Source: a virus
Length of the DNA stretch: 64,000 bases
Virus record (IMG/VR): IMGVR_UViG_3300036985_006427
Span: 32,001-96,000 of that record
Strand: one strand, 5' to 3'
Positions 1 through 32,664 of this stretch are shown here, one piece after another; the first letter of the stretch is position 1; each line of letters opens with the position of its first letter. The position numbers and the translations under genes were made by a program. The notes under the pieces were generated by a model. That model saw only the letters and a list, made by a program, of their open reading frames with translations, was not told where the DNA came from and ran no database searches.

Positions 1-3000
1 CCGTTCATCACGGTGTTCACCAAATCTGCGCTGGTGGCGCGTTTTCCTAAGCCTCTTCTTATAGCGCTATTTTGTTCATCTCTGAGTTTTTGTCTTTCTC
101 TGGCTATTTGACTTATTGCCATCTCTTTTTGTTTCGCTAATTTTCCCCATTGAGCTGTGTATAAATCCAACTTGACGGTCGTTTTTACTCCTCCTTGAGA
201 AACATTTATTCCTATAGACGTTATCAACGGTCCTTCTGCTTGTAAGGCTTTTGCTAACGCTATACCTGTTGGAGCATCTGGAAAAACAAAACCTCCTCGT
301 TCACTAAACAAAAGTAAACTGTTTGAAAACTGAGCTTCTAAAGATCCTGCTTCGTTCATCAATTGATAACCAGCATAATTCCAAGGAGCTAAATTTTCAT
401 TCTTGATAAATTCTACCTTGCCGCCAATATCAGAATATTTAATTCTTGAATCCTCTTCAGGGTTTAATTGGCTCGCTGACATCCATGGACCATAACATCT
501 TTCCATAGACATCAATGGCAAAGCTATCAAGTCTGGATAAACTGGTGACGGTTGAATATAATTGATAGCAGTATTTGGACTGTTTGCTATGCTTCCTTTT
601 ACTATTTTTTTAGCAATTGATCTTGCGGATGAAATTTCACCCAAAGATAGATTGAGCCAATCTGATTTTTTTCCGGGTATAAAGGCCATTTCCAACGGAG
701 CCAATCCAAATACTCCTATCACAAATTCTGAACCAACTAAATTATATCTTTGTGCCTCTCTTATTGCTTTTTCTCTTTGTTGTAAGAAAACCGGAGAAAG
801 TAGGTCTGAAGGATTGACCCTAAACAGAGTAGGTTCACATCTTAAATTTGGTGGTCCGGGAACTGGAATAGCTGGGAAATTAAACTCCGGAATTTGCACA
901 GTATCTTGTGTCATAAGATGTTTAAGCTGCGCCGCTTGATATGTTTGATTTTGACCATCATTCCATCTTGTGTCCACTGAGCTTTTTATTCTTCCGGGAA
1001 GCGTTATCAAAGCATACACATGTTCATCGTCTAATTGTTCTGTATCTGTGTCTATGATCCAACCATCTAAATCTGCATTGTAGGTTCTGCTAAAATCAAC
1101 CCAAGGAGAAGCTGTACCATCAACACCCCCGTTTTTAGGAAGGGAAAACAATGGAACGATTTCTTCAAAAATATATTTAGACGCCCTGCATCCGTTAGCA
1201 CCAACGGTTTCTACTAATTTTTGTTCCGGAATAGACAAGTTAAACGAATAGTTTCTTGCAAATTGAGTCAACGAATAATCTTTGAGTCTCGGAGGCATGT
1301 ATAGCTTTTCTTCAACACTACACTTTACAAAAGCCATTGATGGCGGTTGTAATATTTTTTTATTTCGATCCGCTTCTGTTGCCGCTAAACCTTCAAACCT
1401 TGTTTTTTGATCTATATTGTTGTTTGGCAATTCTTCGACAACATCCGCAATGAATTGACCGCCCTGAGTAACAACCTGTTGAACAATGTCGTTCTTACTA
1501 ACGCCAGTAAAGTCTAACAATTCACTATGATTAAACCTAACATAGCATTGAACACGACTGGTATCGCTGAGTAAATTTGTGGTATCAACTGGACACAAAC
1601 CTTGCTGAATAGCCGGAGGCAAAGCGCTCCAAGGAACGCCATTTTTCAGAGCTTGCAATGCAGATATATTGACTCCAAACATATTGAATCCAAAAAAACC
1701 GCCTTGTGATTCTGGTTTATAATTCCATTCCCAAGCTTCACTGAATGGATTAAAATTACCTTTCAAGGCTCCAAAATTATATGAAGCAGAAGCTCCACGT
1801 CTTTGAGATAGATTTTTATCTGAAACATAATCTTGTAAATAAGGATACCACAAGTTTGAAGGATTGCTGTTTGATAGTGCGTCCAATGCCCTCAGTTCAT
1901 ATCCTATGTTGCCAGAAAGTCTATTGATATCATAATAAACTCCTCCGATAGCAGCGGGATCTGAAGAAATAGGTTTCGGAGGAAATCCAAAAGGACCATT
2001 TTTAACATTGAATGGAGTTGTTCCAGTGAAAGTAGAGATCGTTGATGAATAGCCAAGGTTGCATGACTTTGGAAGTCTAACCAAAAACTTTTTACCAAGA
2101 CATTCATCTGCTATAGCTTTTACAAATTCGTATACTTTTTTCGCATTTTCTTCATGTTTCTTTGCTGTTTTTTCGATATTAAATAAGAATTTTCCCAAAG
2201 GGCCATTTCCTATATTTTGAACATAAGCTACTGTGTCTCCAGCCGCTTTTAGTTGAGATTGTAATTTCAAATAATTATTGATGGTTTGCTGAGCCTTTGA
2301 AATTTCTTCTGTTAATGCTTTCTTTTCTTTGTCATCAGAATAATAAAGCTTATTTAAAGTATCTTGTAAATCAGCTACATGATCTATAGCTCTCGGCAAT
2401 TGCAGCATCGGAGCTTCAACACTTTCAAGTCCTTTTTGTAGATGTTCTGTATCTTTTATCAATCTAGTTTTTGCATTCACAAGGCTACTGATTCCAGCTT
2501 CAAGTATTCCAATGTTGGTGGCTCTTCTGTAATAAAGAGGATAACCAAAAGGAGGAGAGCATGGACTAGCTGGATATCCATCCTCAGTAACGACAGGTTT
2601 GTCAGAATGCCAAACGCATCTTGGAACTGTGACTGCATATTGCCTGCCTTTTAATGCGTTTATAGCACTGGTGATTTCACCATCCTGTAAAGCTCCAGCT
2701 AATTCAGTAATTTTTGCAAACGATTGAGCTTGAATCGCTTCTGATCCAGCAGACAGAGTGCTTAAAAAAGCTCGGTGCTCTGAAATATCTTCAATGTAAG
2801 TATCGTTGTATGATAATAAAAAATCTTTCCATTTTTCGTATGAGATTAAAGCTGCTCGTAGCTCCATCTCTGTCGCCACGTAATAGCTTCCAACTCCATG
2901 AGCGTTTAGAGATGTGGCGTCCAGTAAAATCTGTTGGTAAGAACCAAAGCCTCTTGGTATTGATATAGCTTTGTTTCCAATCATACCATAATACGGCAAA

Positions 3001-4793
3001 AGTTGCTGTTGCTCTTGAACTCTGAGATCCCATTGGGATTGTTGAAGCCAAGTCATATTGGCGGTATTGTTCGCTTGATTCGAAGTCCAGAGAGTGTCTC
3101 TATCACGTTCAGTGGAAAAGAAATATGTTTCGACCTCTTGGGCACCAACAACAAACTTGTCGGTAACAACATTGGATAATTCATAACCAACATCTTGGTT
3201 TTCTACATTGATGCCTCTTGACTCTAAATTATCTAAGTATGATTTTATCGCGCCATATTTTGGCTGCTTTGTTTTATCTATAGCATCTAGTCTTATTATT
3301 CCTGTGATAATATTTGCGGATTTTCCTTGAGATATTTGGTCGTTGTTGTAATTATAGAAAAATTCACATGACGGATGATCTATAACCGGAAGCAATGTTA
3401 CGTATAGTTCATGACTAATGATATCGCATAACTCTTGAGCTAGGCTCAGCAAGTCTATTTGGCTAAAATCCATGTAATACAATAGTGGGATTTTTCCTGT
3501 GGGGATTCCACCAAAATCAACCACATAATTAAATCCTCTAAAATTTATTGATCCGCCAAAACCAGCTTGAACATATTCTTGTGGCATGAACCCGTCGTAT
3601 TGAAACAATGCGGACAAAGCTTGAGAAATGCGATAAAATGGCATTCCTTTGTCGCTTCTTCTTGAAAAACCTTGACCAGTGATTGGGAAAAATCTAGGTA
3701 GATTTTCTGGGTTAACAATAGAATTGTTTACTTCAAAAAAGTATTCATCCTTCAAGAGAACTGGCTTAGGGTTTATATCAGTTGTCAACGATCCATCAGA
3801 TGAAACCCATTGTCTCGCTGAAGGTGTAACTTGAGCTATGTTATTAGTCTTTTCCCAACCAGTAACGTCATTCCAATTAGATAAAACTCCAACATAATCT
3901 ACTCTTCCAGAATTATCAACAAGCTTAGTTACAATTGCGGCTGTGCCTTCTCTTTCAAATTTTGTCAGCAATTGAACCGATGGATCATATTCTAAAAACC
4001 CATAGACATTTATAAGGTTTTTATTGTTGAATGTTGTTCCTTGGTAGTCGTTTAATAGAACTGCTACATTGGATAGAATTTCCCTCGGATCTGTGAGCTG
4101 AACAGCATACGTTGGCTTGCCACCGTTGCCTTTATTTTGAGTGTAGCTTTGCAGTATCCCACCAAAATTAAAGTGAGAACGTCCTCGCCAGTATGTGTTT
4201 ATATCCCATAAAGCGCTTCTGTTTTGAATGAGTTTCGCTTGACGGTCAACAAAATGATATGGTTTCAATTCGTCGAAATCATCTGGGTTCCAGCTTGACG
4301 TAGGAAATGGAACGCCCCAAGCATTATTGGCTATTTTTGGAGGAAGGGTTTCTATGCCATACAGATCATCGTACGTTTGACGGAAAGCCTGATCTATTGT
4401 TGCTGGATTTTTTCCAAACTTAAAAAATACTGGCGTGCCAACAACGGGAGGTCTGAAAGTATCATATTCTCCGTTGTGGTATGGATCGTCTCCGTAACCC
4501 AATGTTGTTGAGTCTGATTTATTGAATTCGTCATTTATTAAATTGACGCTCATTGTAGATGATGAAGATCCAAACCCTGCGCTTAAATCAAAGTCAATGA
4601 TAGAAGCTCCAAGAAATGTTTGTTGTACAAACCCTTCATTGCCAAAGTTTCCACCGGTGAGATTATCTGCGGTCCAACCTCCAGTTGATATGCCTCCGCT
4701 GGCTCCTTGAGGTAGATTAAAATGAACAGGCCAATCTTTTCCGTATTCACCTGAAGGCGGAATTATTCCATATGCATTATCTAAATTTGACAT
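1..4793 (-). CDS. Tail tip / baseplate hub-like protein, partial (>1590 aa, runs off the left edge)
   Basis: Absent from the ORF track, consistent with no stop in the window. ATG at 4793 with GGAGAGG RBS. Frame spot-checked at the start (MSNLDNAYG), ~3180 (NQDVGYELSN) and the edge. Hub-like motifs FGGILQSY..VQLTDPREIL and GPLITSIGINVSQGGVKTTV; lies downstream of the tape measure. Confidence 0.75.
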   Translation of the reverse strand, partial: MSNLDNAYGIIPPSGEYGKDWPVHFNLPQGASGGISTGGWTADNLTGGNFGNEGFVQQTFLGASIIDFDLSAGFGSSSSTMSVNLINDEFNKSDSTTLGYGDDPYHNGEYDTFRPPVVGTPVFFKFGKNPATIDQAFRQTYDDLYGIETLPPKIANNAWGVPFPTSSWNPDDFDELKPYHFVDRQAKLIQNRSALWDINTYWRGRSHFNFGGILQSYTQNKGNGGKPTYAVQLTDPREILSNVAVLLNDYQGTTFNNKNLINVYGFLEYDPSVQLLTKFEREGTAAIVTKLVDNSGRVDYVGVLSNWNDVTGWEKTNNIAQVTPSARQWVSSDGSLTTDINPKPVLLKDEYFFEVNNSIVNPENLPRFFPITGQGFSRRSDKGMPFYRISQALSALFQYDGFMPQEYVQAGFGGSINFRGFNYVVDFGGIPTGKIPLLYYMDFSQIDLLSLAQELCDIISHELYVTLLPVIDHPSCEFFYNYNNDQISQGKSANIITGIIRLDAIDKTKQPKYGAIKSYLDNLESRGINVENQDVGYELSNVVTDKFVVGAQEVETYFFSTERDRDTLWTSNQANNTANMTWLQQSQWDLRVQEQQQLLPYYGMIGNKAISIPRGFGSYQQILLDATSLNAHGVGSYYVATEMELRAALISYEKWKDFLLSYNDTYIEDISEHRAFLSTLSAGSEAIQAQSFAKITELAGALQDGEITSAINALKGRQYAVTVPRCVWHSDKPVVTEDGYPASPCSPPFGYPLYYRRATNIGILEAGISSLVNAKTRLIKDTEHLQKGLESVEAPMLQLPRAIDHVADLQDTLNKLYYSDDKEKKALTEEISKAQQTINNYLKLQSQLKAAGDTVAYVQNIGNGPLGKFLFNIEKTAKKHEENAKKVYEFVKAIADECLGKKFLVRLPKSCNLGYSSTISTFTGTTPFNVKNGPFGFPPKPISSDPAAIGGVYYDINRLSGNIGYELRALDALSNSNPSNLWYPYLQDYVSDKNLSQRRGASASYNFGALKGNFNPFSEAWEWNYKPESQGGFFGFNMFGVNISALQALKNGVPWSALPPAIQQGLCPVDTTNLLSDTSRVQCYVRFNHSELLDFTGVSKNDIVQQVVTQGGQFIADVVEELPNNNIDQKTRFEGLAATEADRNKKILQPPSMAFVKCSVEEKLYMPPRLKDYSLTQFARNYSFNLSIPEQKLVETVGANGCRASKYIFEEIVPLFSLPKNGGVDGTASPWVDFSRTYNADLDGWIIDTDTEQLDDEHVYALITLPGRIKSSVDTRWNDGQNQTYQAAQLKHLMTQDTVQIPEFNFPAIPVPGPPNLRCEPTLFRVNPSDLLSPVFLQQREKAIREAQRYNLVGSEFVIGVFGLAPLEMAFIPGKKSDWLNLSLGEISSARSIAKKIVKGSIANSPNTAINYIQPSPVYPDLIALPLMSMERCYGPWMSASQLNPEEDSRIKYSDIGGKVEFIKNENLAPWNYAGYQLMNEAGSLEAQFSNSLLLFSERGGFVFPDAPTGIALAKALQAEGPLITSIGINVSQGGVKTTVKLDLYTAQWGKLAKQKEMAISQIARERQKLRDEQNSAIRRGLGKRATSADLVNTVMN

Positions 4794-7092: not shown

Positions 7093-10000
7093 TTAATATC
7101 CTCTTACTCTTAAATTAAGAGCATTCGTTGTCTGAGTACTCGTCAGTGATAAATTCAAGGATTCTGAACTCTGCCCACTTGGAGCAGAGATAAACAGAGA
7201 TAATCCAGAAGGGTTCTCTCCGCTAGCAATCCCTAAAACACCAAAGTTATACAATCCTAATGTATTATACACATTTGCTCGATCTGGCCCCAACAACGAT
7301 AGGTTCATATCTCCAGACATAGCGACTGGTCTTCCGGAGGTTATCAAGTTGAATGAATTGTTGATTTCTGTACCCGGAAACAGTTCAAACTTTATGTTAT
7401 CGATGTATGGTCTATGAGCCACAAAACCCTTTGTTGATGGGTCAAAACCAGAAGCTTCTAAGAAAATGTCTCCATTTTTATTGCTAAACACTATGCCTGA
7501 AACTACATATTCTAATGAATCTCCAGATGAATTCTGGTACACCCTTAGGCCAACCCTGTCTGTTGATCCAGACTCTTGTTTGTTTCCAAACACATGAGCG
7601 TCTATCCAACCTCCGCTATTTTGTATAGAAGGAATCTGTTGTCTTAAAACACAGTCGAAGGTATAAGCAGCTCCAGCATTATTTAAACCTTTTGTTGGAT
7701 GATCTCCACTCGTTGGCCAATCGTGATTTGGAGAACCAGCAATCAATGTATAATCACTATCTCCTCTAAGTGGCCTATCTATACAAACGGAGGCTCCAAA
7801 GTTGTCATTGTCTGAACCACTAGCCGCCAATATTCCGGTTGTTAATGCGGTTTGAACTCTAGACTTGTAACCTACGGCAAGCATCTTTTCAGCAAATATC
7901 CATCTTTGTGTTCTTTCATTGAAGTTGACCATTTCGTTTCTATAGTTATAAACAGCACCATTGTTTAGAGTCATTGTTCCGCTGTTGTTGCCAAATGTAT
8001 TTACTCTGATTCCGGAATCGGCTAAATCGTAGAATGAATGTTTTGGAATATCAAACTTGGCGTCAAAACTCTTTCTCTGGAAGGCTGTAGATCCACTGTA
8101 GATATGGTGATGTAAAGTTTCAAACGAATGATTTGGAGCGCCCACAACGGCCATGTCGTAAGCTATATCAACTGAAAATCCAAATCTATCTCCACGGCGA
8201 GCGTATTCTGATATAAATGAAGAATCGTTTATTTGATGTGGACCTCTCAAACTTGTTAATTTCTGAGATGGAGTTGGAGAGAAATCGTAGATGCCAACAT
8301 TTATGCTGTTTGGCTTTATCTTTTGTTTGAACTCCCAAGGTAGAAACTCTTCTATTACATTTTTACCATTGTTTGTTTTCTCGAATATGAATGCAGCTCC
8401 AGCGCCTCCGTCTGCGCCTATTCTTATTCCAGATCTAGTTGCATCGTTTTTGATTTCATGCCACTGAACAATTCCACTGACACCGCTTATAGCTCCTTCT
8501 GAATGAAATGCGTTGTATGGTGTTCCAACTATAATTTTTCCATTGTCTATAGCGACAGAGTATCCGAATAAATCTCCCGGACATCCAGAGTTGAATAAAT
8601 CATAATCAAGATAGTCTGCGTTAGCTATCTTCATAAGCTCATTCAATCCGCCTCCGATACCGGCATCAACTATAAAGCTTCTGTTTGAATTTTTATCTAA
8701 TCCTAACAGGATATCATAATCGGTATAAATACCTCCATTGTAGGTTACAATATCCAAGAAGTCTCCACTGAACCTAGGGTACATTCCATATTTAGTGATA
8801 ACTTCATCGTTAAAGAAGCTTTTGGATCTTTGTTCCATTTCTTCTGAAGTTTTAAGTTCTGGTGGTCTAGATAGAGTTGTAGGATCGTACGTATCCTCGT
8901 TGTCAGAATAGTTGTTCAAATTACCAGCAACACCATTTCCTCCCCAAAGTCTAGAAGGAATCAAAGTAGCGCCAATAGCCTGACCGCTAACCGCAGCATA
9001 TTTAGCCGGAGAGCCTCGTTCAGGAGCGCGTAATTTCTGAGAAAGTTCCCAGTTTCTGCCTTCTTTTATTAGGGCAGTATCGTAAACCCCTCCTGATTGT
9101 AGTCTTCCTGCCCCGTTACCAATGTTGATGGTTTCGCCAGTATCGTTTGGACTCGGAGGATATAGATTTCTAACAAAGCTTTGGTTGCCAGTTATAGTCG
9201 TTGATCTATAATGAGGGCATTGACCTTGAAGCAAAGTTGAGTCTGCTATTAAAATGATTTTTGATCTTCTCTTGCCATTCTGGAACGATGAGAAGTTTTC
9301 AAACTCTTCTGCCACAATGACTGGTCCATCTTCTATCAATTCTTCAGCCCAGCTTTCAGACGCAGAAATACACTCATCTGTTGTGAAATTGTTTTCATCA
9401 CAGTAAATGGAACTCTTGTGTTTGACTGGTCTAGAAACACCCGGAACTACTCCGCTAGCTGCTGGATTCACAGCGTACCGGAAGTTGAATTGAACTGGAA
9501 GTCCATCGTTTATCAAACCGCTGGTTGTTATAGCATTGATTTCAGTAATGATTGGAAGCAACGCTCCAGAGATAGACAGCATTCTAGGAGTTTTAGGAGG
9601 CAATGAAATGCCTTCTAATTCTTTGACATCTATAAAACTAGACCATTTACTTGTTTGAAAAGTTATTCCAAACTCATCTATGTTGCTATTTGATTCTGTT
9701 CTAAATTCAAAAATGGTTTCCTGAGGAATATAGGTCGTTGTTTTGGTTAGCTCTCCAACGCTTCCACAGGCGAACGAAGGCAAACCTACGGGCGTATCAA
9801 ATATTAGATTTCCACTATGATTCGCGCATATTTTAAATTTTTCATCTGGAGACTCAGAGACCCAATTTATCCATACTCTGTATCCAGATCCGGGTAAAAT
9901 AGGGAAAGTAACAGCGCCTGCCCCGTTAATCTGCCAAGTGTTTTTAGCTCCATACACTTTATAGGTTTGTTTTATCTCTGGCAAGAAAGATAGTATTCTT

Positions 10001-13000
10001 TCAAAATCCTGCCCTCCTGATAATGGCACAAAGTTTGTTCTGCTTGCGTATGAAAACTCTTCACTTTGAGATGCAACGCTAATTGTAGCTGTGTTTGGAT
10101 GGAAATCTATTCCACTGAGACTTGTAGAGGTTTTGTAACTAGGATATGTGAAGTGATACCCATCATCACAACCGCTGATGCTGTCTGTTGCATAGTTTAT
10201 CAATTGTTTGTTGTCATTTTCTGTATATCTGCTCAACTTGTCTGACAAGTAATACTTGCCAAGTTTTGGTAAGTACATTGGCTTGCTTGTCATTCTCAGG
10301 CCACTGCAAAGATATGTAATATTATCAGATATTTCTTGAGCGGTACTATCTTTTACAGCACTGTAAGTTATAATTATCTTCTTGTTGCCAAAGTCAAGCC
10401 AGTCGTTTAGCGTCATTAAATCTTCACTCGAAGGTTTTCCAGACGGAAACGCCAACCACACAAAGTCTATGGAGCCGTTGACATATCTCATTTCACTGTT
10501 TTCTGTGAAAAATCCGCCATCAGGAAAAAATTCAACGTTTAATTTATTTGCTAAATTATGACCAGAGGCAGAATTTCCAGAAGAGTCATAAGCGTTCTTG
10601 AGAGATGTTCTTCCTGTAAAGCCATTTATCTGCAAACCCTTTGGGGCATACAAGCAATCTTTACGGATCATATTTATATAAAACTCTGTATTCTTATCTT
10701 TATTCAACGTGGCGTAACTAAGACCACGGCTAGCATCATCTTCACTCCACTGCGTAGCCAAGACATAAATGCGAGAATTATTAAATGATCCATCTGGTTT
10801 TCTTCCAGACTCCACAAGGGCTACTATCTGATCTGGGTAAACCGTTTCTGTGACATCAACAGCTTCAGATAAAATTTTACCAGCAGCTTGCATCAATCCG
10901 TCACGACCATTTTCAAGAGCAGGGTCGAACATATCTCCGTTATAATAAAATGAATTAAAGTTTCCACTAACAACCGATGGTCCATTTTCCATTATATGGA
11001 ACGCAAGTTCATTTATGTTGTTGGCAGCAAAAGATATCTTTTCTTCAAACTGCTTGTTGACTTTATAAACCTGTGGCTGAAAAGTATCCCATATCAATCC
11101 AGATGTAGCTGGATCGTACCAAGATGTTGGAGGCAAGTGTTCAGCGGTCGTCAAGACTGGCACGGGTTCTTCATTGCTTTTGTTGAACAACGATTGTGGA
11201 GGGCTATCACAATCGATAGTAAAGTTCTGGAACTGCAAAGGCCAGTTTTTATAATATGACACTACGCTACAAGTCTTTGGAGTTGTTTTTACGCACTGCT
11301 CTTTCCATTGGGCTCGTAAATCACCTACAATCCCTTTTAATGGAAATTCACATTTTGAATTTATAATTGGAGCAGGACCGTCACCGCAAGTAGCTCCTTC
11401 TGGGCAATTTAGATTTTCAAAAAATTCATCAAGATTATCTCTAGACAAATCTATACGAATATCGCCAACACCCTTGATATAATATTCTCCATGATGCTCA
11501 ATCGTTCTTCCAGTTGATCTATCTGGCAAGAAAGATTTAGTAGCATTGTATTTATTGCTAGAAACATCTTGTTGAGAAATGCATCCTTGAGCAGAATACT
11601 CAACATTACGCGCAGGATGTATTCTCATTCTGGAGCCTAATTTTTCCAGAATTTTGTTTACAATTTTATTTGAATCTTCATACAATCCATCTTCTTCCCA
11701 TACTGGGTCGTTGCCAACGATAACAAGATTTCTATCACCCAAAGACAACCAATCTTTGATGTTTTGAATAATTTCATCGCTTGCAGCATCTAGTTCTGGA
11801 GTGACAATAAACGCAAGACCAGCGTCTCTAGGAATTTCAATTTCAGAGAAATCAGTTCTTCTCCAAGATTTACCTTGATATCCAATCGTTCCGTTTGACC
11901 CAGAAGCGAAGATCAAAGGCCAATTAGAATTATCATAATAACCCAAAGCTCTTTCTTCAGGATGAGAAGATCTGTCAAGATTGCCAAACCTTCCAAACTC
12001 AACAACTTTGTTGTGAGGATAATATTTTCTGTTTTGGAATACTCTCACCGCTCCAGCATTTGTATATGAAGCCCAAGAGAGAATGTTATCACCCCAAACG
12101 TTAGCGTCTTCAAATTCGTTAAAGCAGTCTGTGGGTGCTCCGAACGCTACGGTTTCTCCGTCTTGGTCTACAGCACAGCTCCATCCGAGCCTCGACGTTG
12201 AAGCGAACGTAGATGGCAAGAACTGTCTGGTTCCTAAGTATTGAATATCATTGTGCCCATACTGATATGTCATTTTATAAGGGGTTGGCAGAGTTCCCCA
12301 GAAGTTGATATCATTTCTATATTCAAATCTTTCTGAGGATTGTATAAAGTCGTATGTAGACACTTTGGCTATAGCTTGTCCAGATTGAGACGCTATAGAA
12401 TCGTAATGACTGACAGCTTGCGGCTTGTTCGTGGAAACGCACCAGCTACGAATATTGTCGTAAACCTTCTGGGCTTCTTTTTCGTTTCGTTCAAAAATAT
12501 TACAAGATTTATCGTTCCACGGAGAACCGACTGCTACAACTTCTCCATTTTTACTTATAGAAACGGCGTGTCCAAACCTATCGTTGTATGTCTTGCTGTA
12601 TATCGAACCTAAACCATCCATACTGTCAAAGTTAAATTCTAACTTGTCGTTTGGAGACACAATGACTTGTATACAATTGAAAGTGTTTCTTTCTTTTTCA
12701 AATATATAAACTCTTCCGCCAGAGGCTGGTGGTACTTGAAATTCTGTTACAACAGACCCATGAGTAGAACCCCATTCTTGACCAACGCCACTTGCTATAA
12801 AGTTTCTGTTTAAAGTAGTGTTGGTGTATCCTGCGGACAATCTTCCGCTATCGAATGTATTTTCAAACAACTGCTTGCAAGTGGTATCCCATGTTTCAGA
12901 CTCTCCAGTGATCTTATTCAGATGACCACTTTGCGCAATGTTTTGGACAAGATCTTTGACTCCACTCGCATAAGAGTGAGCTAAATAAAACTTTTCAAAC

Positions 13001-16000
13001 TCATCATAGATGTTGATGACCACCCCATTGTTGCCGTATTGCAACGCTCCTTCAGTAGACCCTGTTTGTTCTTTGAAAAGACCAATGATAGCTGGTATTC
13101 CGCTATACACTGAGAATTCAGTAGAACCACTAGGAAACGCTTGGAAGAAAGCGGACTTTACTCCGCTGAGCATTTGATTGAACACAACTGGTCTTCCAGA
13201 AGCTATGAAATTTGCAGGAGATCCTAATCCACCAAGAACCCCTGAACCAGTATCAAGCAGTAATTCTAGGTCATCCAATCTAGGAATGTATTTGTGGACA
13301 AACCATGAAGACTCATCGGTTGGTATAACTGGATAATTTCTATTTGAATGAGTTAATTGTAGTACTATCAACTTAGGGTTGATTTGAGCGTACCATTCGT
13401 TTGGTCCGCTGTTCCAAGGTGCAGAGAAATATTTCCATAGTGTATTAAATTTTTGAGCTGTTGCAGCTACACTTTTCAGCTTTTCTTTTTCGTATTCAAA
13501 TAAGTCTGTAAATATGATTCCTGCCGTTGGAATGCCAGACACAGCAATGTCAGAGAAGCTTCTTGACCACTTGGCTCTTGGGGCACCCACAACCACAATC
13601 TCACGTTCACCACTAGAGCAAATATCTAAGGATTCTCCGAATTTTCTGCCTTCCTGTCCAATCTGCCATTTGTTTCCAGATATAGAGAATTGATCAAATC
13701 TAATTATATTTTCTTCTGTTCTTTGTATGTAATCTTTTCTGAAACCAGATGGTAACATCAACTGTTCAGCGTAAGACCATCCAGCCTTTTTGCCAGCTTG
13801 ATCAGAACCTCTTCTGTACAAGAATACAGATCCAGCTCCAGATACGTTCACTGTAGATTCGTCGTAAGGTGAATAATCTGAGATTGTAATGTTAGGAGCA
13901 GATATAGCCATCAAGTCATTGCTGACACGCACCTGTTGACCGTAATTATCATTTACGTTTCTGCCAGAAGCAGATATTAACTTCACACCTGAGAATACTA
14001 TGTTTTGATCACAATCTTCAGTGCAGCAACCGCTATTGTTTGGATACCAAGCTGGTCCACACATTCCGTATTCCCATTCTTCGAATGTTCTTGGAACAGG
14101 AATAGATTGATTAGAACCAGTTTTAATAACTAGCGTGGTCTTATAAGCAAGCGATGGCAATAGCTGATCAAACTTTCTTATTCCATAGTAATTTCCGCTA
14201 TATCCAAATCCACCTGCGAAATTAATTGCTCCAGAGTTTGTGTACGTATTCTTTGCTCTGAAGATGCCTCCATCATTGCATGTTTCTTGTCTCCACGTAA
14301 TGCCGTCAGTAACCAAAGCTTTATCTATAGCTTTGCTTGGACTGTCTCCTGTGCATGATCCATAACCTATTAAATCTACACCTCTGATTTCATTGTTTGC
14401 AGGCAGAAATGCAACATGATTGTCTGCAAGTTCTATTGGAGATCCATAGCTACTGCTGTTCCATACAGCCAAAGAAGATCCAAAATTAGAGCTATAGTTT
14501 GCTGTTACAAAATTTAGAGATCCAGTCAACAAGGATTTAACCAAAGGATTATGCACATACAAAGGCATAGATTGATTTATAATGTTTGGAGCGTTTATGT
14601 ACAAAGGCATAGAATGTGAGCGTCGTGTGGACACTCCTTGATTATGACCAACAATGGTCAATCCGATCACTCCACTGGCACTGCCTTTTTGTCTGTTCAA
14701 TTGCTGGTTATGTAAAAATAATGGCAATGAAGATAAAACGCCCACGTTTCCAGAAGAAGCGAATAGATTAAGATTTAATACTGGACCTTCTGGTTTACCT
14801 GCCAACTCTATATTGACCAGAGTCAATGGCATACCAAAGAAACTACCAACAGATGTATTTGGGTTTCCGTCATCTGATGTATCGAGCATACCTAAAACTT
14901 TAGGCATAGATAAAGACAAGCCGCTACTCAGCGATGTTGGTAATTCTCCGCTGATATTTAAATTAAAATAGCTGTATCCAGATTGAGGAGGTATAAATAG
15001 ATTCAATGAATTAGATTCAGTGAAAGCTCCACTTACATTCAAGAAAAATCCAGATGGATGATCTACTTCATTGAAGATATTATACGGTATAGGAACCTGA
15101 ACTATCAACGGTAGTATTCCACTGTTTTCTCTTGGGAAACCGCCAATGTTAAGATTGATTTGGCTAGAAGCCGGGAAAGCTCCACTAACATTCATATTGA
15201 ATGTGCCGGAAGAACCCAGTGCCAAAATATTAGCATCTACCATTCTCACATGAGAAGAGTGCATATCTATTCTAGATTCAAATGCTGGTCCAGAAGGATA
15301 AACCAGATCGTATTGAACGAACATTTGATTTACATCGTCTTTGAAATATCTTTCTGAAAAATCTTTTAACCTTGGTTCTTTTGGGAATACAGCCCAAGGC
15401 TCTGTTTCATCGATTAGATCTTCATAATCAAATGTAGATTCTAACTTAACAAAACAGCTAGACGGTTCGATGTAATGAATTTTTCTGTTTACCAATCCCC
15501 AATTCGGCTCTTCTGTTGTCCAATATGGGTCTTGTTTCTTTGTGTACAAGCTAACTATAAACTTTGGACCAGATGGAGCGATTGTTTCACAAGATGGCCA
15601 CTTTATTCCATCTCCAAATTTATGCTCAACAATAGTTTCTACAACGAGGGCTCGTTCAGAAAATTTATATCCAACTGGTATGCTCTTGGTTATTCTTCTG
15701 TTGACTGCGTAAAAATTATCCACAACGTCAGATAAATGAAATCTTAAAAAGTCATTTTCTATCTGAGTATGGTAAGCTACAGTGTTATCCACAGATGTTG
15801 GCAGCGTTATATTTGTCTTGTCTGAATATCCAATGCCATCGCTTTTCAAATTAAAGGAAATCAGATCACGACCTGTGCGTTTTGTCAAGAAGTCAAACGA
15901 AGCGTCAAATTGGCAATATTTAAAGTCACCTACGTGCCAATCATTGTGCGTATCTTCGTCAACGTTTTGCCATAATGTAAATCTATCGTTGGTGTGTGAT

Positions 16001-31683: not shown

Positions 31684-32664
31684 CTAAATATTTGTCTTTA
31701 TTCCCAATGTGCAGAACCTCACAATACCTCCAAATAAATTAGGACTCACCATGTCCATTTTCTCGACGACGGTGTTTTCCATACGAAAAGGACCAGCGTT
31801 ATAATTCTCTATCAATTCTGGGTACAAAATAGCGCTTGGATTAGGATAACCTAAATGATTTATAGGGTATTTATTCTCACTGTTTAGCCTATCGCTATCA
31901 ATAACATATACGCTTTTATCATTTTGAAGCGAAACTATATCCACCAGCATATTGCGTGTTTGTTCGTCTTCAGCTATGCAATGAGCTATAACATCTGTGT
32001 AAACCCATTGACCGCCACCAAGTTGGTACGGTTTGAACTTTCTGATTGGAACAATTTCAAAAGCTATAGCTGGTAATTGTAATCTATTTTCTGGAGGAAT
32101 ATCCCAAGCCCCAGTGCTCACGTCATAGAAATTATTATTTGGCTGGTTGCTGTTTGTTTGAATCTGCCTCAACCAAGGCACATTGTTTGCATAAACTATA
32201 TTTATGTATTTGTATGAATATTCTACTTGAACCAAAGATCCACTTGGTACGGCAGAATTAAATATAACCCTACCGTTAAAATAATCAACATGGTGAGCGT
32301 ATGTGCCCACTCCAGAATTTGGCTGAAACTGATTGTTCACATAAATGCCACTTATTCCGGGAAAGTTTGCATTTGATCCAACCTTTGGCGATGCCATTCC
32401 AATTCCAGACACTCCACTTTGCCAAACCCAGTTTTTTCTAAAACCCTCCCAAACTTGTCCAGAAGTATAAGAGTCGTTGGATGAGAGTCTAAGACGACTC
32501 ATATCAAGACCATTTGGAGAAGTTTCACCTTTTGTTACATTGAAGTAATTGCCTTTTTCAAGCAATGCCCAGTCAAAATATTCGACCAAGGCGTCTTGAA
32601 TATTGTTGTTTAAACTGTAATCATTTATGCTTGTGAAACCTTTTAAGCCGTCATAATTAGCCAT
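31684..32664 (-). CDS. Neck / tail terminator-like protein
   Basis: RLQLPAIAFE..RNMLVDIVSLQ; start moved to MANYDG on GGAGG spacing; upstream of tail tube. Confidence 0.55.
   Translation of the reverse strand: MANYDGLKGFTSINDYSLNNNIQDALVEYFDWALLEKGNYFNVTKGETSPNGLDMSRLRLSSNDSYTSGQVWEGFRKNWVWQSGVSGIGMASPKVGSNANFPGISGIYVNNQFQPNSGVGTYAHHVDYFNGRVIFNSAVPSGSLVQVEYSYKYINIVYANNVPWLRQIQTNSNQPNNNFYDVSTGAWDIPPENRLQLPAIAFEIVPIRKFKPYQLGGGQWVYTDVIAHCIAEDEQTRNMLVDIVSLQNDKSVYVIDSDRLNSENKYPINHLGYPNPSAILYPELIENYNAGPFRMENTVVEKMDMVSPNLFGGIVRFCTLGIKTNI

Follow-up and report, generated by a model that had tools for sequence, protein, structure and literature searches.

A giant phage tail protein with a predicted seven-bladed FG-GAP propeller and two looped-out modules

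The viral DNA analysed here (IMG/VR record IMGVR_UViG_3300036985_006427, positions 32,001 to 96,000; 64,000 nucleotides, hereafter the window) contains a giant open reading frame (ORF), P0001, which follows immediately on the tape measure gene and encodes a protein of 4158 amino acids (aa). Over its C-terminal 2,400 residues this tail-tip protein probably forms a display platform, in which one seven-bladed FG-GAP propeller would be assembled from two separated sets of blades, blades 1-4 (residues 1876-2524) and blades 5-7 (residues 3667-3972), and would carry host-recognition domains looped out of the ring. Two such modules are proposed: one is a 286-residue Rossmann-like domain in blade 2, emerging from the loop that joins strands 2 and 3, and the other a module of ~1,130 residues at the junction of blades 4 and 5. 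FG-GAP propellers are a common adhesion scaffold. The fold, ring closure and insert anatomy described below are taken from structural models, while the adhesion function and any metal site are inferences. A first-pass annotation of the window had proposed an integrin-like receptor-binding head on a 4158-aa virion protein, with a von Willebrand factor A (vWA)-like domain inserted in blade 2. The architecture is upheld by the fold and by a two-chain model, while the vWA identity of the insert is not.

Pfam recognises a single family above threshold over all 4158 residues: FG-GAP_2 (PF14312), found in four stretches with an E-value of 6.3e-22 and a score of 77.9 bits (cut-off 23). The related integrin-type family PF01839 is not matched. 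A motif scan, alignment columns and the secondary structure of an AlphaFold2 (AF2) model together place seven blades (Table 1), confirming the seven FG..GAP-type sites listed by the first-pass annotation. That annotation gave the blade coordinates without remark on the ~1,130 residues that separate blade 4 from blade 5. Direct reading of the translation shows that calcium-binding D-x-[DN]-x-D-G hairpins of the integrin/PF01839 type are absent from blades 5-7, and that blade 4 has only a short D-Q-D-G. A candidate eighth blade at residue 4109 was rejected; it is a weak motif in the Ser-Gly-rich tail of the protein and is present in close relatives only.

The structural evidence comes from an AF2 run on residues 1855-2530, a 676-residue fragment holding blades 1-4 and the blade-2 insert, with a 53-sequence alignment. 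The resulting model (predicted local distance difference test score, pLDDT, 85.7; predicted template modelling score, pTM, 0.73) has four four-stranded blades, a hairpin, a helical excursion in blade 3 and an alpha/beta domain within blade 2. When blades 1-4 of the model were compared with known structures using VIA-align, integrin alpha propellers led the list (alphaM, alphaX and alphaL; Z 15-16, root-mean-square deviation (rmsd) 2.7-2.8 Å over 206-213 residues), with alphaM (7usm_A) at Z 16.1 and 2.7 Å over 206 residues. Integrins as a whole scored Z 12.6-16 and other propellers 9.7-12.5, which supports the integrin alpha-type propeller suggested previously. The blade register of these superpositions shifts between targets, as pseudo-symmetric blades should, and carries no information on which phage blade corresponds to which integrin blade. 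Sequence-profile searches of the PDB gave weak integrin matches only for blades 1-4 (E 0.025 or worse) and nothing usable for blades 5-7 or for the N-terminal 1854 residues.

The seven blades are predicted to close into one ring. Closure was tested with two chains, one spanning residues 1855-2516 and the other 3642-3977, and a separate alignment for each. The two-chain prediction reached an interface score (interaction prediction score from aligned errors, ipSAE) of 0.77, compared with 0.00 for the best of three controls. This mark is attained by 58 of 80 solved complexes and by two of 110 mismatched pairs, a calibration that is only roughly valid here since own alignments were used. The runs share at least 58% of their contacts, and the pLDDT of the partner is at least 61. 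The lowest-error contacts join residues 1877-1884, the inner strand of blade 1, to residues 3927-3947 in blade 7, and residues 2463-2477 in blade 4 to residues 3669-3679 in blade 5. Both junctions required by a closed 4+3 ring (1/7 and 4/5) are therefore contacted at once, and the single seven-bladed propeller of the first-pass annotation gains support from prediction. A conserved strand at residues 1859-1865 touches blade 7 in the model and may be a 'velcro' strand that closes the ring. Part of the closure score may stem from the model's memory of solved propellers.

Blade 2 is interrupted in its strand 2-3 loop, with strands 1-2 ending at residue 1997 and strands 3-4 resuming at residue 2286. 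The blade had previously been described as split by an alpha/beta insert of ~280 aa followed by one strand; the split stands, and AF2 places two strands after it. The insert was also folded alone (residues 2000-2285, 53 sequences), giving the element order beta-alpha-beta-beta-alpha-alpha-beta-alpha-beta-beta-alpha-beta-alpha-alpha. Foldseek of this model against the PDB returned no vWA domain and a best E-value of 0.016, and against the predicted viral structures of BFVD nothing specific (best E 0.0096). VIA-align against 48,161 chains gave 3rag_B as the best match (Z 8.0, rmsd 4.1 Å, 159 of 226 residues). The remainder of that list, again without a vWA domain, lies at Z 6.2 or lower and consists of generic Rossmann-like, GT-B, deacetylase, periplasmic-binding and CARF folds; re-alignment against the top 1000 Foldseek chains gave a best Z of 5.8. 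By VIA-align's own note, a Z below 8 is common background. Pfam on the 53 insert sequences gave noise (VWA_2 in one of the 53, E 0.16), the PDB sequence-profile search found no vWA and nothing usable, and profile-profile alignment (hhalign) revealed no relation to the middle module. A hidden Markov model (HMM) of the insert, searched against 1.84 billion protein representatives, retrieved 97 proteins, every one a member or fragment of the giant family. A match to capsid-protein clusters in the ESM Atlas (score 0.83) was set aside as noise, since recognition was low and the score under 0.9. On the AF2 model and these searches, the insert belongs to a common alpha/beta fold class and is a domain particular to this family, and the vWA-like assignment made for it earlier finds no backing in Foldseek, VIA-align, Pfam, PDB profiles or the HMM search.

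The middle insertion lies between blades 4 and 5. DUF4350 (PF14258) is matched in 28 of 42 relatives, with a best E-value of 3e-8, and the GldG-type ABC_transp_aux (PF09822) in seven of the 42; those DUF4350/GldG-type matches with a listed score fall below the Pfam gathering threshold. A PDB sequence-profile search with the middle module gave nothing usable. The matches in relatives mark the N-terminal halves of two units, which are homologous to each other by hhalign (probability 96.3%, E 1.6e-9). Some hundreds of residues after each unit lies a stretch similar to such a domain's C-terminal half, a weak match at a probability of 6.7%. By sequence comparison, the insertion thus appears to hold at least two DUF4350/GldG-like units, broken up by other sequence. 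Four invariant cysteines that closely follow the first DUF4350-like half (C2722, C2740, C2759 and C2787; residues ~2700-2790, window 11200-11500, minus strand) suggest a disulfide-stabilised or metal-binding sub-domain.

The split architecture is a constant feature of a large family. A search with the propeller region found more than 318 proteins of 2.3-5.2 thousand aa, most of them near 4 thousand, that span residues 1860-2520 end to end. All are from marine or other metagenomes, including the <0.22 µm size fraction of Tara Oceans. A pattern scan of IMG/VR recovered 62 loci at 25-92% identity. The blade-2 insert is present in 52 of 52 relatives, at 239-303 aa, and the middle insertion in 50 of 50; blade spacing and both insertions are constant in every relative examined. 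In seven of the 62 loci (L043 and L046-L051) the gene is divided in two near residue 1739. Two of these, L043 and L046, were inspected in detail; in each, an N-terminal protein (1,519-1,576 aa) is encoded apart from a propeller protein (2,197-2,284 aa) that holds all seven blades. Because the propeller proteins of split genes keep the full set of blades, the propeller region is a separable module. The split point falls inside a conserved Cys-rich stretch; the gene may truly be divided there, or the point may mark a conserved site of translational frameshifting.

Across 47 full-length proteins, the column entropy of the blades was 0.9-1.4 bits, that of the blade-2 insert 1.74 and that of the middle module 1.84. 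Within the middle module it peaks at 2.26 bits at residues 3104-3400 and drops to 0.80 in the first DUF4350-like half. This pattern agrees with a conserved scaffold that displays parts of greater variability. We propose that the propeller would be the scaffold and the looped-out domains the working parts. A [DE]-x-[ST]-x-S motif, kept by the blade-2 insert in 52-53 of 53 sequences, is a candidate metal or ligand site within them. In integrin propellers the 2-3 and 4-1 loops share one face, and since this is standard propeller topology, both modules would project from the same side of the ring. That side would face the host, and gene position and variability suggest that the looped-out domains most likely recognise a host surface structure at adsorption.

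Several points weigh against this proposal. The common face of the two modules is deduced from topology, and the ring was modelled as two chains rather than one. The fourth strand of blade 4 is not resolved in the AF2 model, where pLDDT is low at fragment residues 663-676, so the ~1,130-residue insertion could sit inside blade 4 instead of at the 4/5 junction. In the window's own middle module Pfam finds no match at E 0.01 or better. Higher variability of the insertions would be expected of any surface-exposed domain. The giant protein has no match to any known receptor-binding or enzymatic family in Pfam, PHROGs or PDB profiles, and megablast and tblastn of its gene against 50,697 phage records returned no match. 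Homologous contigs from metagenome-assembled genomes (L064-L067) carry conflicting labels (Verrucomicrobiales, SAR202 and Flavobacteriales); these are most likely contigs of phages wrongly assigned to bacterial bins, with no host signal.

One rival explanation concerns the insert itself, which could be a true, possibly circularly permuted, vWA/I-domain with a metal-ion-dependent adhesion site, known as MIDAS, kin to a 220-aa protein encoded elsewhere in the window and conferring integrin-like, metal-dependent ligand binding. In support of this, all 53 sequences carry a [DE]-x-[ST]-x-S motif after a hydrophobic central beta-strand (D/E at 2167 in 53/53, S/T at 2169 in 53/53, S at 2171 in 52/53), of which the insert segment picked out by the first-pass annotation is this phage's version. 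Distant relatives have the canonical DxSxS, and an aspartate, D2022, stands at the end of the first strand of the insert in 50 of 53 sequences. The fold class is an alpha/beta sandwich, and on our own reading of the AF2 model its element order may be read as a vWA domain begun at strand D. However, the motif strand is the fourth in the insert and not the first, as it is in vWA, and the Pfam, PDB-profile and HMM results given above speak against the assignment. Foldseek with the whole 676-residue model did place the I-domain integrins alphaL, alphaM, alphaX and alphaE first (E 1.7e-7 to 6e-4, 570-770 columns, template modelling score 0.12-0.20), with the I-less alpha4 aligned over 132 columns only (E 2.8e-3). 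Since a local alignment spans the insert and its flanking blades only if the target also has an alpha/beta insert, we read this lead as reflecting a co-linear propeller, alpha/beta insert, propeller layout, not homology of the insert. The 220-aa protein had been described as a free MIDAS protein aligning by eye with the insert. It carries D-D-S-G-S after a hydrophobic strand, and hhalign of the insert against its family lands exactly on strand and motif (pairwise E 0.0025), but over 18 columns and at a probability of 12%. BLASTP of insert against protein gave no match (E 1.2), the insert HMM did not retrieve it from the 1.84 billion proteins, and the protein has no Pfam match, its 18-member family yielding a non-significant VWA_2 in two (E 0.033) and nothing in a PDB profile search. 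Neither the alignment nor the MIDAS label is sustained; as far as their sequences go, the two appear to share a motif and no demonstrable domain. The conserved motif hints at a metal or ligand site, located at the sheet's C-terminal edge. That it forms a working MIDAS together with D2022 in a permuted vWA-like domain is unlikely, and so is the vWA explanation as a whole. Were it true, marine phages would have independently reached a MIDAS head on a seven-bladed FG-GAP propeller, and the 220-aa DDSGS protein might be a distant free-standing cousin.

The looped-out domains might instead be enzymes, for example glycan-modifying or depolymerising activities on the tail tip, with the D/E-S/T-S residues being catalytic or cofactor-binding. 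Common enzyme scaffolds include Rossmann-like sandwiches and the class I glutamine-amidotransferase-like (DUF4350/GldG) folds. The weak structural neighbours of the insert include esterases, deacetylases and glycosyltransferases at Z 4-6, as well as two phage tail or tailspike chains (9lc0_I and 9vyh_m) at Z 5.4. Every one of these matches is at the generic level, however, and Pfam, PHROGs and PDB profiles gave no catalytic family signature, which leaves an enzymatic role doubtful. A further alternative questions the ring, with the blades forming separate partial beta-sheet arrays or blades 1-4 of one subunit pairing with blades 5-7 of another. Tail-tip proteins are usually multimeric, and an inter-subunit swap would give the same two-chain score as an intramolecular ring. 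Against this, four and three blades make exactly seven, contacts form at both junctions simultaneously, split-gene relatives keep both blade sets on one polypeptide, and the architecture is invariant across the family; we regard the absence of a single ring as improbable.

Of known architectures, that of the I-domain integrin alpha chains (alphaM, alphaX, alphaL and alphaE; PDB 7usm, 5es4 and 5e6s) comes nearest to the phage protein. The likeness lies in a seven-bladed FG-GAP propeller, predicted in the phage protein, in an alpha/beta domain, a few hundred residues long, that loops out near the start of the propeller, and in a [DE]x[ST]xS motif resembling the integrin MIDAS. The integrin I domain sits between blades 2 and 3 (PMC2784866), whereas the phage insert interrupts blade 2 itself, between its second and third strands, and is not detectably vWA. 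The phage protein also differs in having a second insertion of ~1,130 residues at blades 4/5, in its blades without calcium-binding hairpins, and in lacking thigh and calf leg domains, a membrane anchor or a beta-subunit partner (Pfam recognises FG-GAP_2 only); the neighbours scanned included no integrin beta-like gene. As early chordates gained the integrin I domain from a collagen-type domain (bioRxiv 10.1101/2023.11.05.565221), the likeness is one of convergent architecture and not of insert homology. Of the 'convergent or related' head proposed earlier, the convergent layout thus stands, in agreement with the co-linear Foldseek matches, and a related insert does not.

Bacterial FG-GAP_2 (PF14312) propeller proteins are another known group for comparison; the phage protein matches their family, and both are without calcium loops. 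We know of no described FG-GAP_2 member with a ring interrupted by more than 1,000 residues or located in a phage tail protein. A literature search found no description of FG-GAP propellers in phage tail proteins, no FG-GAP ring whose two parts stand over 1,100 residues apart in the chain and which has entire domains looped out of it, and nothing relevant on DUF4350 in phages. The units of the middle insertion resemble, in relatives, the GldG / IFT52 'GIFT' and DUF4350 domains (PF09822 and PF14258), and differ from them in lying within a propeller and being broken up by additional sequence. In structure, the blade-2 insert comes nearest to 3rag_B, the uncharacterised Aaci_0196 of Alicyclobacillus acidocaldarius, on which no paper was found; the score is at background level, and the insert shares only 6% sequence identity with it.

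The upstream tape measure protein, a large terminase and several virion or tail-fibre-like genes are encoded in the same window. The region is therefore a phage tail module, and the giant protein is encoded where tail-tip proteins are. By the usual length rule, a tape measure of 2,792 aa implies a very long tail, of the order of 400 nm. PHROGs recognised nothing in the whole giant protein and gave an almost empty result for eight neighbouring proteins. Two Ser-Gly-rich, loosely periodic segments with N-L-x-x-S-G-type repeats, at residues ~1451-1700 and ~4061-4158 (window ~14470-15220 and 7093-7390, minus strand), are the most variable parts of the giant protein, at 2.21 and 1.89 bits respectively. 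An R-G-D tripeptide occurs in the strand 1-2 loop of blade 7 (residues 3924-3947; window 7765-7800, minus strand), within R-x-x-R-G-D-S-D-Y. In 47 relatives R3935 and D3937 are invariant and G3936 is nearly so. In an integrin-like propeller this is a curiosity, and its role is probably structural. The 220-aa protein has an invariant Cys-rich N-terminus, with five invariant cysteines in the first 35 residues, and its DxSxS stands only 60 residues from the C-terminus, too late for a canonical vWA domain. Its family numbers 21 metagenomic members, with no Pfam match.

Table 1. Features of the giant protein, its neighbours and its split-gene relatives. Residue n of the giant protein starts at window position 19569-3(n-1), so the start of each blade is the higher of its two coordinates; blade starts in window coordinates are approximate.
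Feature	Residues	Position	Strand	Basis or remark
Giant ORF P0001	4158 aa	7093..19569	-	ORF list and translation; more than 318 full-length relatives, 3.7-5.2 thousand aa
Conserved strand before blade 1	1859-1865	13975..13995	-	Two-chain interface: chain 1 residues 5-11 with chain 2 residues 322-333
Blade 1	1876-1937	13759..13944	-	Motif scan; AF2 strands 26-29, 32-37, 59-66 and 77-83 of the fragment
Long beta-hairpin between blades 1 and 2	1946-1970	13660..13734	-	AF2 strands 92-104 and 107-116
Blade 2, strands 1-2	1977-1997	13579..13641	-	Motif scan and AF2
Blade-2 insert	2000-2285 (286 aa)	12715..13572	-	Three-layer alpha/beta sandwich, predicted; AF2 alone, pLDDT 89.8, pTM 0.88
E-x-T-x-S motif in the insert	2167-2171	13057..13071	-	This copy of the conserved [DE]-x-[ST]-x-S; alignment column counts
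Blade 2, strands 3-4	2286-2304	12658..12714	-	AF2 strands 432-439 and 442-450
Blade 3	2332-2437	12259..12576	-	AF2; helical excursion of ~60 residues (2363-2424) between strands 3 and 4
Blade 4	2461-2524	11998..12189	-	Motif scan and AF2
Middle insertion (~1,130 residues)	2525-3655	8605..11997	-	Between blades 4 and 5; 999-1244 aa in relatives
DUF4350/GldG-like unit 1, N-terminal half	~2579-2662	11584..11835	-	Pfam matches in relatives; hhalign against unit 2
DUF4350/GldG-like unit 2, N-terminal half	~3022-3103	10261..10506	-	Pfam matches in relatives; hhalign against unit 1
Blade 5	3667-3753	8311..8571	-	Pfam, motif scan, invariant alignment columns, two-chain model
Blade 6	3796-3897	7879..8184	-	Pfam, motif scan, invariant alignment columns
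Blade 7	3924-3972	7654..7800	-	Motif scan, invariant alignment columns, two-chain model
Tape measure protein, upstream neighbour	2792 aa	19574..27952	-	Pfam PhageMin_Tail PF10145, E 2.4e-22
220-aa protein	220 aa	47696..48358	-	D-D-S-G-S after a hydrophobic strand, residues 157-161 of 220
Split-gene ORF pairs in relatives		L043:3157-14570; L046:2983-14285		Adjoining or overlapping by a few bases

Members of the giant-protein family are plentiful in marine viromes, and neither isolates nor the literature gave a match to it. If the looped-out domains do recognise the host, the protein would be a natural example of domain display on a propeller and a convergent parallel to the I-domain integrins. 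The separable module of 2,200-2,400 residues offers a concrete handle for structural and binding work on uncultured marine phages.

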